This document shows positions 6,089-49,920 of a stretch of 64,000 bases of DNA, one piece after another (the first letter of the stretch is position 1; each line of letters opens with the position of its first letter). The translations under genes and the position numbers were made by a program. The notes below the pieces were generated by a model that was not told the origin of the DNA, made no database searches, and saw only the letters and a program-made list of their open reading frames with translations. Where the stretch lies: the NCBI GenBank assembly GCA_029762535.1, contig JARVGK010000003.1, positions 1 to 64,000 of the forward strand, given 5' to 3'. The stretch is from Thermoplasmatota archaeon. Its GTDB lineage: Archaea > Thermoplasmatota > Penumbrarchaeia > Penumbrarchaeales > Penumbrarchaeaceae.

Positions 6089-6742
6089 TCAATAGTGCTC
6101 ATCTATGAGAGATGATATCAGGCGGCATTCGGCCTTGCGGAGATGCTCGATCGCAGTGGCCTTGCTCACGCCCAATCTGGATGCCAGGTCCTCTGCCTTA
6201 ACTTTCCTTGGATAATTGTAGTAACCGCTCTTTTTCGCCTCGAAAAGGATCTCCCTCTGCTTCTGCGTTAAACGGGATATTAAATCCTTTTCCTGGAATG
6301 TCGCTTGCGAAAAGGAAATCCTTCTGACGGACCCGAAGAGTTTCATAATCTTTACTGCTCTTTTCAGTTCATTTTCCTCGCCCATGCAGGATAAGAGCAT
6401 CCTGCCATCCTTCCAGAAGGTCGGGTCTGTCCAGATCACATCCATCCTAGAACCCCTGAACATGTCCTTCAGGATCCCTTCCGGTGCCTTCGCATAGAAG
6501 AGGACTATATATTGATCACCATTTCTGGACAGTATCGTGGTCTGTACCGATAAAGGCCATTTGATACTCTGCATCTCTACACCATTCTTCAGTTTCATCT
6601 CGGCGACCATCACCTTGACCCCTTCTTCGAAATCCACCCGTAGGAGATGTATCAATCGGAAAGATTCGATACGATCGAGAAGGCCTTTCTGGTATGTTTT
6701 AAAGAGGATCCCAGGTTCGAACTCCATTGTAAGCTTGCGCAT
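6089..6742 (-). CDS. bat-type (HTH_10) helix-turn-helix transcriptional regulator
   Basis: LTQKQREILFEAKKSGYYNYPRKVKAEDLASRLGVSKATAIEHLRKAE. Confidence 0.9.
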   Translation of the reverse strand: MRKLTMEFEPGILFKTYQKGLLDRIESFRLIHLLRVDFEEGVKVMVAEMKLKNGVEMQSIKWPLSVQTTILSRNGDQYIVLFYAKAPEGILKDMFRGSRMDVIWTDPTFWKDGRMLLSCMGEENELKRAVKIMKLFGSVRRISFSQATFQEKDLISRLTQKQREILFEAKKSGYYNYPRKVKAEDLASRLGVSKATAIEHLRKAECRLISSLIDEHY

Positions 6743-6839
6743 GATGCTGTAATAATTGACCGGTTATTTAAAGTGCCATACATGAACGGCAATGAAAATA
6801 TTTACGATCGAACCCATACTCCATTACAGGAGGAATATC

Positions 6840-7523
6840 ATGAAACTAGTGGAGATCGATCAGGTCCATAAGAGCTATTATTCAGGTGGAGACAGGACGC
6901 ATGTCATAAGAGGAGCGGACCTATCGATGGAGAGAGGAGAAATGGTGATGATAATGGGCCCGTCAGGATCGGGCAAGACCACGCTCTTGAACCTACTGGG
7001 AGGTATTGATAAGCCCGATTCCGGCATACTTCGGGTGGATGGTCTCGATCTCACGAACCTTGGTAAGAAGGAGTTGACGAGATTCCGAAGGGAGAAGGTG
7101 GGATTCATATTCCAGTTCTACAACCTGATCCCCACATTGACATCCCTCGAGAACGTCGAGCTTGGCCTTGAGGCGCTAGGCCTTCCCAAGAAGGAAATCA
7201 GGTCGAGGGCTTTGAAGTACCTGAGGCTTGTCAATCTCGATGACAAGCTCGGTTCATATCCTCAGGAGCTTTCGGGAGGACAGCAGCAACGGGTCGCAAT
7301 AGCAAGAGCCCTTGCCAAAGAGCCAAAGTTGATCCTTGCCGATGAGCCGACAGGGAACATAGATGAGGAGCATGAGAACATTATAATGAGCCTAATGAAG
7401 GACCTGCAGCATCGATCGAAGACAGCTTTCATGATCGTTTCCCACAACACGCGGCTGAAGCGTTTTATGGACCACACCCTCCACCTGAGACGCGGAAAGC
7501 TATCGGAAAGCAATGGAGGTTGA
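6840..7523 (+). CDS. ABC transporter ATP-binding protein (LolD/MacB type)
   Basis: [49 protein letters not shown] upstream of ATG 6840. Confidence 0.92.
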
Positions 7524-7528
7524 CGTAA

Positions 7529-9838
7529 TTGAATGCGATATACAAGAGTGTTTTAAGAAAACTTTGGAACATGAGATGGCGGTCCATTGCGTTCTCTCTG
7601 GTTATCGCACTTGCGGTGGCCATGCTTGTTTCCGGCCTTTATTCTTCATTGGTATTCGATCACTCCATAGATACTTTCATCGAAGGGACGAATTTTCCCG
7701 ATGTTTTCGTTCAGCTGTCAGATCCGATCGATGATGCCTCGATCGATGATATTCTATCCTCCTCATCTACCATAGACGCTTATTCCCTACGGCTTAAGGC
7801 CGATGGCATCTATCACAACGGGGGTGAAACCTATCCGGCGATCTTCATAGGGATCGATGATCCAACAAGGGAAGACATTGCCAGACTGGTCCTTAAGCAA
7901 GGTCGGTTCTTCGAAGGAAATGGCACGGGCGTCGTGGTCGCTGGGATGGAAAGTATCGGAGCGGAGGAAGGGTCGGAACTGGCCTTTTCAATAGGAACCA
8001 AAGACTTCAGACTGAACATCACAGGTTCCATTCAGACCACGGAGTATCTTTTCTTCCAGGCGATCCCAGATTCTTCACTTCCCTTTCCAGGGCAGGTCGT
8101 TGTGGTCTATATGGGTTTGGAGGATCTGCAAGCCATCGTCGGTCCTGGGATCAATGATATGATCCTCATCTTTTCCAGCGGCTCGGATACTGAGGATGCG
8201 ATACCCGAACTGGAAGGCCTGCCCATATCCCATTTGGTCCGTCAGAGGGATCATCCCAGCATCGTTTTCATGGATCTGGGAGTGGTGAAGATGAAGAACA
8301 TGTTCCCTCTACTTTCTTCCATATTCATGGTGATAGGCATGATCTCGATCTTCATGACCTTCTACAGGATCGTCATGAACGATTCCAGATACATTGGGGT
8401 GATGATGTCCCTCGGTTACAGCAAGGGGAGGATAGTGGCATCCTATATGGCCATGGGGGCGTTTCTGGCTCTGATAGGCTCGATATTGGGGTTTCTGTTA
8501 TCTCTACTTTTCACCTATGGTGTTATGTCCATAACGATGACGATGGTCGCCGATATCGATCTCGCTTTTCCGGTCGATCCGATGCCTTTCATGATAGGGG
8601 CTCTCTATGCGTTCGGGAGCGTTCTAGTATCCATAGGCATCCCGGTCATCGTGATAACCCGACAGAGTGTCCGGGAAGCCCTGGACCACAAGCCTAGGAC
8701 GAGGGTAGCGACGTTAGGGACCTCCCTTGGAGGGCTTTCCACCCTGAAAGTCATGGCGTTGAGGAACACCTTCAGGAACCCACCAAGGACCGCACTGACC
8801 GTCCTTGTGATCGGTATATCCATAGGTATGGCTGGATCGTGGCTGGTCATTACCGACTCGTCGATGACGTTCCTGAACGAACAGGTGGACTCCGATACCT
8901 GGGATATCAGGGCCGATTTCAACGGGATGAAGGATAACGATAACATCTCTCTTATACTTGATCTTCCCGATGCCGATTATGTCATACCTTTCGCTTTCTA
9001 TGCCGGCTCAGTAGAGAAGGGAGGCGAAGAGGATCACTCCTACATAGTCGCATGTGACGACATGGCCCAAGCCAGAGAATTCGAACTGCAGGAGGGGAAC
9101 TTGGATCTCTCAGGAGCAGTGATCACGAATAAACTCGCGAAGGATATGGGCCTGAAAGTTGGCGATAGCATAAGGATCTCAGTGGGACCGAGTTCGATGA
9201 TGATAACCATCACAGGGATTGTCTATGATATTCTGGGTCATACCGTGTACATGGATCGGAACGCTGCCTCGCAGATCGTCGAGAAAGATGTCTCATCGGG
9301 AGCTTTCATCAAATTGGATGATAAACAGCAAGTAGGGGCCAGGGCCTCTGAGATCAGAATGATCCCTGGAATATCCCGGGTCACCGTACAGGATGATATA
9401 TCAAGATCGGTCGAGGAGACCTTCGGTCAGGCCATGAGCATGTTATGGGCATATTTCTTGATCACCTTGTTGATAGCACTGGTGATCGCCGGATCGGCCA
9501 TAATCATCTCGACCATGGAGCGGGACCTGGAATATGCCACTTTGGAGACATTGGGGATCAAAAGGGAAAAGGTGATAGGTACGCTCGTACTAGAAGTGAC
9601 AATAATTGGGCTATTATCCTCTGCCATAGGGGTCCCGATGTCCTTTATACTTGGAAAACTAGTCGCCTTGGTAATGGAGGAGATACTCTACACCTTTCCC
9701 ATACTCTTCGCCATGAGCACGATCCTCCTAACATTCTTTTTGGGAACTCTATTTGTCCTGGGATCATCGATATTTCCGATCCGTTACACTGCGAAGTTGA
9801 ACGTCGAGAGGACCATAAGGGAGAGAACAGCTGCATAG
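7529..9838 (+). CDS. FtsX/MacB-like ABC transporter permease (duplicated)
   Basis: Two MacB-periplasmic + FtsX halves ([10 protein letters not shown]; RNPPRTALT; [13 protein letters not shown]); directly follows the ATPase gene. Confidence 0.88.
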
Positions 9839-31766: not shown

Positions 31767-32050
31767 CGGACCCATGGGGATTCGATGCTTAGAAAATCCC
31801 TACGGATTTTCTGCATCTTGGGATCTCGAATTAAAGGAATGATGCTTTTGATCCCAAGAACCAAGGTTCGAATCCAAATGTACATTGTTCTTGAAAATAA
31901 TTAGAAAGCGGACCCATGGGGATTCGACTGTGAAAAATCCTTCGGATTTTCCACGTCTGGGATTCTTTAATCGATATGATATTGTTGTTGAATCCCAGAA
32001 CCCAAGGGTTCGAATCCAAATGTACAATGCTCCCGAAAATAATTAGAAAG
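31767..32050 (-). repeat. two 142-bp tandem units, each carrying the tRNA-Arg 3' end with a twin-hairpin insert
   Basis: cggacccatggggattcga at 31767, 31909 and 32051 (exact 142-bp period); shared ggttcgaatccaaatgtaca and gaaaataattagaaag. Confidence 0.9.
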
Positions 32051-32124
32051 CGGACCCATGGGGATTCGAACCCCACCCCCCGGCTCCGAAGGCCGGAAGA
32101 CTATCCTGGCTATCCTATGGGCCC
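32051..32124 (-). tRNA. tRNA-Arg (anticodon TCG), no intron, CCA not encoded
   Basis: GGGCCCA/TGGGTCC acceptor stem, CCGGC-CTTCGGA-GCCGG anticodon arm, TGGGG-TTCGAAT-CCCCA T arm. Confidence 0.93.
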
Positions 32125-32676
32125 GATGATTGGGTTATGGCCCTGTAGGGTCATAACCCTATTTTAATCGATTCATAAGCGGATCCCCAGGATATGTGTT
32201 ACTCCCGAAGGGATCGGGGGTGGGGAAAAAAGTCTCTGTGGTTGGATTCTTTCGGGGGAAGAATCCACCGGAAGACTATCCTGGCTATCCTATGGGCCCA
32301 TATTGGTTTGTAGTCCGAATGTAATGAGGACTATAAACCTTTATATGGTGATCCTTAGGCTGGATAGGCGGATCAAGCCATATTCGGGGTGGGGGAAAAG
32401 CCTCTGTACGGAGGCCGGATCGGGGATCCGGCCTGAAGACTATCCTGGCTATCCTATGGGTCCATGAACTATTGGATGGCCAAAGGCCGGCCAATAGTTC
32501 TATTTTTCGGACCCATAGACGATGGGGGATAGGCGGATCTAGCCGAGTTCGGGGTGGGGGAAAGAGTCTGTGTACGGAGGCCGGATCGGGGATCCGGCCT
32601 GAAGACTATCCTGGCTATCCTATGGGCCCGATGATTGGGTTATGGCCCGTAGGGATATAACCCAATTTCAATCAAT
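32125..32676 (-). repeat. three ~165-175-bp units, each carrying the tRNA-Arg 5' 29 nt plus hairpins
   Basis: gaagactatcctggctatcctatggg(c/t)cc at 32271, 32435 and 32601 (and at 32096 in the tRNA); shared ggggtggggg-aaa block. Confidence 0.9.
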
Positions 32677-48657: not shown

Positions 48658-49389
48658 TTTTTTACCTCCAATGGCTTGGTGAAAGATGAGAAAGTATTCT
48701 TACATATTATAAACATAACTTGACATATTAGGTTTTTCATGTCCAGATACGGGACGAATGAAGGGATCCCTTCTTCTGGATAGGTCGATGTTCATATCGA
48801 GTACGGAATAGGGGATCGTTGACGGATGTTCTTGGACTGTTAATAGCAGGGGTGAGAGAAAGGATCCCGAACGGGGATCCCGCGATCATGGTCCTTGACA
48901 AGCTCTCAAGGTCCAATTTCAGGATGTCGATCCCCTTTTATCTCCGCACCAAGGAGGAGATCTTAAAAGTAAAGGATGATTAGACAATACTGTCACTGGT
49001 GGGAACCTTCGTAACGTCAACATGCCGACAACTACAACAGTTCCAAAGGGGGGAAAATGCCATCGGGAATTTTTTCGAAGTTGAACCCTGGGTTCAAAGA
49101 CGCCAGTGGCGACAATGAGTAAAAAAATAAACGGGAAGCAACAAATCGCTCGATCATCAGGCTTCCCGGTCCTGGAAAAACCAAGCCGGGGAATTGGTCA
49201 CTGGTAGTTTTTCCCGACTTTTTCATCCTACAACGATCACAATATGCCAAAGGATGAAAAAGAGCCACTGGTGGGAACCCGCAGAAACCTCGAAGAGGGT
49301 TCGAGGGCAGGGGAAATGTCATCAGACATTTTCCCGATGTTGAACCCAAGGTTCAATCACACCAGTGGCGACAAAGAGTAAAGAATAAA

Positions 49390-49464
49390 TGGAGCCACTG
49401 GTGGGAATTGAACCCACGACCTACTCCTTACCAAGGAGTCGCTATACCGCTAAGCCACAGTGGC
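49390..49464 (-). tRNA. tRNA-Thr (anticodon GGT), CCA encoded
   Basis: GCCACTG/CAGTGGC acceptor, ACTCC-TTGGTAA-GGAGT, GTGGG-TTCAATT-CCCAC, TCCA end. Confidence 0.95.
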
Positions 49465-49520
49465 GATGTTTTGGAGGGTGGTTAAAAACGGACCTTTACT
49501 TAAACATTGCTGAGTTATCC

Positions 49521-49720
49521 GAGCCACTGGTGGGAACCTTTGGAACGTCAACATGCCGACAACTACAACAGTTCCAAAGGCGGGGAAAATGCCCTCAGGC
49601 ATTTTTCCAACGTTGAACCCACGACCTACTCCTTACCAAGGCCCTGGGAAAACCTTGGGTTTTCCCGGTCATGACCCCTTTCGGGCTCATGAAGTCGCTA
49701 TATCGCTAAGCCACAGTGGC
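49521..49720 (-). pseudogene. full-length tRNA-Thr copy interrupted by two hairpin inserts
   Basis: tRNA segments 49521-49536, 49613-49641 and 49693-49720, separated by 76-nt and 51-nt inserts; D-loop GG>GA; CCA lost. Confidence 0.85.
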
Positions 49721-49920
49721 GATGTTTTGGAGGGTGGTTAAAAACGGACCTATACTAAAACAATATTGAATAAGAGAAGTCACTGGTGGGAACCTTTGGA
49801 ACTTCAACATGCCGACAACTACAACAGTTCCAAAGGCGGGGAAAAAGCCTGTTGCTCTTTCTAAGATTTATCATCATCAATAGTGACAATATAATTATCG
49901 TATCAGATCATCCCGCCTTC

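Follow-up and report, generated by a model that had tools for sequence, protein, structure and literature searches.

Results

Repeat array at the tRNA-Thr(GGT) locus

The window, i.e., the whole stretch of 64,000 nucleotides analysed here, corresponds to contig C36 of an assembly of 2.96 Mb and 93% completeness (G000). The AtpB of this uncultured Thermoplasmatota archaeon shares 84-86% identity with proteins of MAGs that carry the label Thermoplasmatota. We found in it a repeat array of five parts, E3-E2-E1-X1-X0 in tRNA sense, with every feature on the minus strand (Table 1). A tRNA census identified E1 as the sole intact gene for the GGT anticodon in the assembly. Upstream of E1 lie E2, a second copy of the same gene that holds the hairpin modules M2 and M1, and E3, whose module is 98% identical to M1 over 53-65 nt. 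Downstream of E1, the fold-back units X1 and X0 each consist of an inverted tRNA 3' end, tRNA positions 51-58, a module and positions 59-73. The inverted part of X1 comprises tRNA positions 53-73, and its final part has no CCA; the X1 module, which is composed of CATC, a GGGAAAATGTC hairpin and a CCTCGAA hairpin, differs from M1 and M2. The last 15-16 nt of E3, X1, X0 and E2 correspond to the 3' strand of tRNA-Thr.

Table 1. Coordinates of the features of the tRNA-Thr(GGT) array in the window.
Feature	Position	Strand	Description	Evidence
E3	49781..49845	-	Decayed M1 copy plus tRNA positions 59-73 (GTGAC variant); lies upstream of E2	
Upstream flank of E2	49721..49751	-	31 nt	Identical to 49465-49495
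E2	49521..49720	-	Complete second tRNA-Thr(GGT) copy with two modules inside, G19>A, without CCA	
E2 piece 1	49693..49720	-	tRNA positions 1-29	27/28 bases equal E1
M2	49642..49692	-	51-nt module at 29/30, antisense to the tRNA	Fold z-scores; relatives
E2 piece 2	49613..49641	-	tRNA positions 30-58, including the GGT anticodon	29/29 bases equal E1
M1	49537..49612	-	76-nt module at 58/59, in tRNA sense	Fold z-score; 13-copy subfamily
E2 piece 3	49521..49536	-	tRNA positions 59-73	16/16 bases equal E1
Upstream flank of E1	49465..49495	-	Other copy of the 31-nt duplicated flank	
E1	49390..49464	-	Intact tRNA-Thr(GGT) with encoded CCA	ARAGORN; Rfam RF00005, 71.6 bits; tRNA census
X1	49262..49372	-	Fold-back unit downstream of E1	Fold z-score -6.4, closed multi-hairpin
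Trailer element	49120..49261	-	Hairpin-rich, ~120 nt, between X0 and X1	
X0	48992..49115	-	Second fold-back unit, decayed M1-like module (93% identical)	Fold z-score -0.8

The trailer element was also observed directly behind tRNA-Thr(TGT) on contig C21 and twice beside tRNA-Thr(CGT) on contig C22. Since it abuts the tRNA 3' end on C21 and follows the displaced 3' end of X1 in the window, X1 together with the trailer appears to represent the original end of the gene. A three-hairpin trailer is common to the loci of all three tRNA-Thr isoacceptors (GGT, TGT and CGT), with copies in G000 at C21:11941-12062 and at C22:6481-6590 and 6644-6758.

A second tRNA gene in the window, tRNA-Arg(TCG) at 32050-32124, is likewise accompanied by its own fragments, which span 31767-32629. 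Two 3' fragments (positions 56-75) lie downstream and three 5' fragments (positions 1-32/34) upstream, each 97-100% identical to the gene, and a hairpin of the same type is found between the downstream fragments, at 31791 and 31930.

An interrupted tRNA copy with exact junctions

As it stands, E2 was detected by neither ARAGORN nor Rfam, and E1 was the only tRNA called at the locus. The initial annotation had described E2 as a complete tRNA-Thr copy carrying two clean insertions. Indeed, after cutting out 49537-49612 (76 nt) and 49642-49692 (51 nt), ARAGORN called a 73-nt tRNA-Thr(GGT) in which 72 of the 73 bases equal E1. The call departs from E1 by G19>A, i.e., the GG>GA change already noted in the D-loop, and the CCA described as lost is replaced by CGG. 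The junctions were confirmed at 58/59, in the T-loop, and at 29/30, in the 5' strand of the anticodon stem. The upstream flank is duplicated as proposed, the 31 nt directly upstream of +1 being identical in E1 and E2, and beyond this flank E2 has a putative TATA-like element, TTTTAGTATA, a reading based on the sequence and on the conservation of TTTAAGTA in relatives. Direct repeats bordering M1 or M2 were not found when the sequence was read, in agreement with the reported absence of a target-site duplication. Moreover, each insert forms two adjacent hairpins, as had been seen by eye, with DNA-fold z-scores of -4.4 to -7.7; none of 200 shuffles folded as well.

Misassembly had been named as one alternative explanation for such a structure. 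Logan contigs from the source sample cross all four junctions (49466-49573 and 49560-49733). The data of another study, X2, include a 255-nt contig that extends over 49497-49751, contains both inserts and shows just 6 differences. Misassembly of E2 was thus ruled out. The strain of study X2 has C at 49703, which restores GG in the D-loop, so that G19>A is specific to the source strain.

Of all the tRNA fragments that the genome contains, piece 2 of E2 is the sole middle piece. Since tRNA-Thr(GGT) is the only tRNA with such a piece, E2 is the only complete interrupted tRNA copy in this genome, and the one place in it where a filled site and its empty counterpart adjoin. This adjacency fixes the ends of both modules to the base and shows that they entered without target duplication.

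Structure of the modules

In tRNA sense, M1 consists of the leader CGTT, a hairpin with the arms GGAAAAATGCC and GGCATTTTCC, CCG, and a second hairpin, CCTTTGGAAC/GTTCCAAAGG. M2, in the same sense, consists of a variable hairpin, TCATGAGCCC/GGGGTCATGA, followed by the hairpin GGGAAAACC/GGTTTTCCC and AGGG. Both are of one module type, placed in opposite orientations in one copy, and share a build in which a leader of 4 nt precedes a hairpin whose GGAAAA..TTTTCC stem is conserved; a short linker connects this hairpin to a variable one. The fold z-score was -4.4 for M1, and for M2 it was -7.7 in sense and -5.5 in antisense.

Counting of base pairs in the module stems gave 464 Watson-Crick pairs on one strand versus 478 on the other, and G-U pairs made up 4.5-7% compared to 11.4% in the tRNAs of this genome. 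Equal pairing on both strands points to palindromes at the DNA level, as do the low share of G-U pairs and the presence of both orientations in one copy; the modules probably act as such palindromes and not as RNA introns. Searching the locus against Rfam at E values up to 10 returned only the tRNA, and a known RNA family or ribozyme was discarded on this basis. A box C/D guide RNA was also considered: UGAUGA occurs in the loop of one X1 hairpin, and the loops of the other copies are TGAG, CAA and GATG. Since the loops vary between copies, there is no consistent box C/D. Inspection by eye gave no insertion motif common to the modules' left ends.

Search for splicing motifs and splicing endonuclease

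The junctions of E2 were then analysed with a scanner for bulge-helix-bulge (BHB) motifs, defined as a central helix of 4 bp with two bulges of 3 nt, each cut behind its second base, and two flanking helices. As a positive control, the scanner recovered the canonical 21-nt intron of tRNA-Ser(GGA), with 4/4 central pairs and flanks of 7 and 5 bp. In E2, one of four central pairs was obtained at the E1-restoring junction of M2 and two of four at that of M1, consistent with the view of the initial annotation that these inserts are not BHB introns. No motif with at least 3 central pairs and both flanks of at least 2 bp was detected within 3 nt on either side of the E2 junctions. BHB and relaxed BHB introns were therefore rejected, the junction scan being negative with a scanner that found the control intron. 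Among the relatives described below, no BHB was found at the junctions of the copy in genome G020 or at the M1 junction of genome G010.

The genome harbors one splicing endonuclease (EndA) gene, located on C19, which encodes 346 aa with an N-terminal domain and two catalytic-type units. Single-chain endonucleases of this two-unit type were reported to need a strict 3-4-3 hBHBh' motif (PMC3239211), and the source EndA would, by analogy with its type, share this requirement. The real introns seen in the genome look unrelated to the modules. That M1 and M2 are introns is very unlikely, and we infer that E2 does not undergo splicing. RNA runs were also searched for the locus, and none was found to contain it; two RNA entries had a share of 0.04.

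A repeat family linked to tRNA genes

Short-loop GGAAAA..TTTTCC hairpins occur at 45 sites in the genome, 26 of which lie within 600 nt of a tRNA gene (0.9 expected). Moreover, fragments derived from the 5' or 3' part of the gene itself were found next to 24 of the 40 tRNA genes. The 5' pieces are located upstream and the 3' pieces, which start at positions 55-61, downstream; throughout the genome, the 3' fragments downstream of their parent tRNA genes measure 13-22 nt. The subfamily of M1, defined by CCTTTGGA..TCCAAAGG, comprises 13 modules at at least 9 different tRNA loci, and most of the 13 border directly, with their right end, on the local tRNA's 3' strand at T-loop position 59/60. Modules are also found outside tRNAs, in both orientations and in arrays. 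In the literature searched, we found no description of this repeat family linked to tRNA genes.

Arrays of GAAAA..TTTTC hairpins away from any detected tRNA gene were observed in G000 at C61:1-330, C25:48590-48800, C31:5530-5690 and C6:78650-78700. Some of these tRNA-distant arrays are situated at contig ends and mixed with GC-rich GGGGCCCC repeats.

The assembly yielded no genes for tRNA-Asp, Lys, Tyr, Leu(TAG) or Pro(TGG), and no sole-copy tRNA interrupted by a module was found in the genome. Interrupted sole copies of tRNA-Asp, Lys(CTT), Leu(TAG) and Pro(TGG) were rejected, since queries from the relative G004 matched no 5' or middle pieces. At C7:38450-39025, units ending in a tRNA-Pro(TGG)-like 3' end form an array that runs into an N-stretch. 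As tRNA-Pro(TGG) itself is missing beside its fragment array, repeats probably break the assembly at several tRNA loci, and the missing tRNAs are probably unassembled.

Conservation of the interrupted copy in the family

We compared the locus among 24 genomes of the same family, in 13 of which the 5' end of tRNA-Thr(GGT) is assembled. A second 5' copy upstream of tRNA-Thr(GGT) was present in 6 of these 13, representing five genera. In G010 and G020, which belong to other genera, the upstream copy is complete and contains interruptions at the same 29/30 and 58/59 positions, and in G001, G003 and G014 tRNA positions 1-29 are followed by a module at the same 29/30 junction. A module is therefore found at 29/30 in five genomes besides the source genome, and a full interrupted copy in 3 of the 13 family genomes with the locus assembled. 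The unit is absent from sister species of the same genera (G004 versus G010; G008 and G013 versus G020). The inserts had initially been taken for a snapshot of precise insertion into tRNA genes. With both sites filled in G010 and G020, the 29/30 site filled in three further genomes and the module family spread genome-wide, this idea of a recent event was abandoned.

The GGAAAA..TTTTCC hairpin is conserved across genomes, whereas the stems of the other hairpin are very different yet still fold (z-scores of -2.0 to -6.6). The motif TATCTT, which is common to the stems of G020, G001, G014 and G003, suggests common descent. The tRNA pieces of the extra copies match the E1 of their own genome at lineage-specific positions, and they carry tRNA-damaging changes: G19>A in the source genome, T55>C and a G1-G72 mismatch in G010, and a G10-A25 mismatch in G020. 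From these sequences, we read E2 as a spare copy that is probably held near E1 by gene conversion and not by selection for tRNA function. In G020 (L009, C17), the interrupted copy ends in ...GGCACCA with the CCA encoded and the intact gene has no CCA, the reverse of the situation in the window.

The strict hairpin pattern was detected in 16 of 23 family genomes and was nearly absent from 227 other sampled genomes of the phylum, with the exception of f29. This distant Thermoplasmatota family has 13-16 copies of the same GGAAAATGCC..GGCATTTTCC hairpin per genome (G065 and G073; L095-L108), and the f29 genomes carrying hairpin arrays are small, at 1.0-1.7 Mb. The f29 hairpins are arranged in arrays with linkers of ~10 nt, e.g., TAAGATGTTA or TAACATGCTA. 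No tRNA gene lies within 400 nt of the f29 arrays, indicating that the link of the hairpin to tRNA is not universal.

Strain variants of the array

Strain variation at the locus is known from contigs alone. A contig of study X3 contains an M1-bearing copy that continues without M2 and includes a 31-mer absent from the source genome. In study X4, one contig links 49516 and 49781 through 8 other letters; the net loss, 256 nt, is exactly one repeat period. A second X4 contig has M1 within an X1-type fold-back. Recombination between the two repeats formed by M1 and positions 59-73 in E3 and E2 would give the 256-nt loss. The strain variants show that the array is dynamic. All of them could be produced by unequal crossing-over in shared tRNA pieces, and module jumping is thus not proven by them.

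Discussion

Proposed origin of E2

In our view, E2 is probably a redundant, non-working tandem copy of tRNA-Thr(GGT) that holds two tRNA-linked DNA-palindrome modules, in an array reshaped by recombination. E1 being intact, E2 is dispensable. The tandem copy would have stopped working as a tRNA, and modules would settle where tRNA genes and their fragments have naturally symmetric arms. The array E3-E2-E1-X1-X0 would grow, shrink and stay uniform by unequal crossing-over and gene conversion between tRNA pieces. Recombination would keep the tRNA pieces of E2 near E1, and the variable hairpin would drift by paired changes. Two observations argue against a dead copy: E2 keeps a promoter-like flank, and its tRNA pieces, inside which no difference is listed for the contig of study X2, would fit conversion or selection alike. 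The occurrence of the same architecture in three genera could mean that the unit has a function.

For the entry of the modules, we favor a trans-acting recombinase with folded or symmetric DNA as its substrate, which would be the host XerA-like enzyme or one from an element outside the assembly. The genome encodes one XerA-like recombinase (C25:101143), one IS110 transposase and, beside tRNA-Trp, one integrase fragment; all three lie away from the locus. The integrase fragment is a 126-aa open frame at C53:7817-8068 that adjoins tRNA-Trp (7507-7705). Its match to a tyrosine integrase is confined to the C-terminal half of that protein, the look expected of a split or decayed integrase from an integrated element. 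More tentatively, and with considerable doubt, the modules might be an undescribed kind of gene-less mobile DNA that carries a GGAAAA..TTTTCC hairpin and is inserted scarlessly at 58/59 and 29/30 by a recombinase other than Y1 acting in trans.

Alternative explanations

Among the other explanations, E2 could be a conserved structured noncoding RNA in which a tRNA-shaped scaffold with two hairpin expansions serves as a decoy, regulator or processing platform. We consider this unlikely. The same architecture in three genera, the maintenance of the hairpins by paired changes and the fold of the whole transcript (z-score of -4.1, in a structure that includes the acceptor stem and all four hairpins) speak in its favor, and the tRNA-linked repeats rrA/B/F of E. 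coli proved to be small RNAs (PMC8144298). However, the full copy is present in only 3 of the 13 genomes with the locus and is missing from sister species, one strain lacks the unit and another lacks M2, and there is no Rfam match. The stems are also strand-symmetric and poor in G-U pairs, and a single transcript would contain the two modules in opposite orientations. A working tRNA gene, from which an endonuclease or a BHB-independent route removes two non-canonical introns to provide a second source of tRNA-Thr(GGT), is much harder to accept and, in our estimation, highly improbable: neither a strict nor a relaxed BHB was found at the junctions tested in three genomes, EndA belongs to the two-unit type whose reported strictness (PMC3239211) would presumably apply here, the copy of each genome has tRNA-breaking changes, and modules also lie outside tRNAs, in both orientations and in arrays. 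These points outweigh the near-perfect tRNA that results from removal of the inserts, the tRNA pieces of the study X2 strain, inside which no difference is listed, the promoter-like flank that E2 has of its own and the G020 copy, which even ends in CCA, as well as the existence of archaeal introns at 59/60 and 53/54 (PMC3239211) and at 24/25 and 45/46 (PMC3293823).

Two further explanations invoke known mobile elements. The inserts and fragments could be scars of repeated virus or plasmid integration at tRNA-Thr, with the hairpins as leftover arms of attachment sites. An E1 with CCA, followed by a displaced 3' end without CCA and the original T-rich trailer (X1 plus trailer), is the classic signature of such integration, and an integrase fragment is found beside tRNA-Trp. 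In a test for att cores, the E1-X1 pair resembled attL/attR; however, no repeat corresponding to a duplicated core borders M1 or M2 in E2, and no integrase is encoded at the locus. In addition, the same small units recur, each matched to the local tRNA, at over 20 tRNA genes, and remnants of larger elements are lacking at these loci. This origin is distinctly unlikely, although we rate it above the intron explanation. Least credible of all is that the inserts are miniature derivatives of IS200/IS605 elements (PATE or REPIN-like), mobilised by a hairpin-recognising Y1 HUH transposase that leaves no duplication. Their subterminal hairpins, the lack of terminal inverted repeats and of a target duplication, the absence of genes and the high copy number would all suit such elements. 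Nevertheless, the Y1_Tnp domain (PF01797) was found in none of 24 family genomes, including the source genome, with 6 control genomes scoring, and mobilisation by IS200/IS605 or RAYT enzymes was rejected on this ground. Moreover, the 5' flanks in module orientation, TTCAA for M1 and CAAGG for M2, have no target motif in common.

Comparison with known systems

Non-canonical BHB introns have been described in tRNA genes of Thermoproteales, ARMAN-2 and Korarchaeum, where similar introns are common to different tRNAs, a pattern read as intron transposition (PMC3239211, PMC4033280). Like these introns, the modules are short and structured, interrupt the tRNA body at sites that include the T-loop, can occur more than once in one gene and have similar counterparts at different tRNAs. 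Unlike them, they reside in a redundant, decaying copy, at junctions without a bulge-helix-bulge and in a genome with an endonuclease of the strict-motif type, and modules like those of E2 are also found outside tRNAs in both orientations. The tRNA-Thr(GGU) locus of Caldiarchaeum subterraneum is heterogeneous, and recombination of a mobile element was proposed there (Sugahara et al. 2012, PMC3293823). It concerns the same tRNA species, it also has a 5' tRNA fragment and the upstream flank duplicated upstream, and its strains likewise differ in the number and arrangement of inserts. However, C. subterraneum has real introns (24/25 and 45/46) in a functional gene and a 1.8-kb element that encodes a recombinase (PMC3293823), whereas the modules described here are 51-76 nt long, gene-less and located in a spare copy.

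A likeness may also be drawn to the tRNA-linked repeats (TLRs) of E. coli (Egan and Landy 1978, Rudd 1999), in which, according to a later account, the unit ends in 18-19 bp that equal the tRNA 3' end and most members are without known function (PMC8144298). TLRs are gene-less units next to tRNA genes that end in the 3' end of the respective tRNA, with one to several units per locus and at many loci. E3, X1, X0 and E2 are likewise units beside a tRNA gene that end in the tRNA 3' end. TLRs occur downstream only and involve the 3' end only; here, we also observed upstream 5' copies with promoter flank and fold-back units, and the modules of E2 within a full-length copy go beyond TLRs.

The modules share with REP/REPIN and with IS200/IS605-derived palindrome elements that they are abundant, gene-less hairpin repeats without target duplication, and that the hairpin stem is conserved and the loop varies. 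They differ from these elements in the absence of RAYT/TnpA (Y1) from the 24 family genomes, in having no common target tetranucleotide and in their strong preference for tRNA arms. In integron attC cassettes and in the XerCD-dependent attP of CTX phage, a folded single strand imitates a double-stranded site and the enzyme acts in trans. These, too, are small hairpin units without genes or without their own enzyme. In contrast to them, a conserved recombinase core was not recognised in the modules. A dif-like Xer site, compared by layout, was rejected as well: the hairpin has arms of 8-11 bp and a loop of 3-4 nt and does not follow the 11-6-11 layout (PMC2958812).

Significance

The E2 locus offers a practical handle on a tRNA-linked repeat family that is widespread in this lineage, since the same positions are filled in other genera and close strains differ in the number of units and in the presence of M2. 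What is new here is the only full-length interrupted copy together with its equivalents in two other genera, the tests of BHB motifs and endonuclease, the test of strand symmetry, the family-wide absence of the Y1 transposase and the strain variants. Should the modules be mobile DNA that lands where non-canonical archaeal introns occur, they could be raw material for intron birth in lineages with relaxed-motif endonucleases; such a link to the origin of tRNA introns, already raised in the initial annotation, is speculative. If the modules are mobile, they would represent a DNA-level route for structured inserts into tRNA bodies, which would bear on the origin of non-canonical introns. If they are only recombination debris, the locus would be a clear case of concerted evolution in arrays of tRNA fragments.
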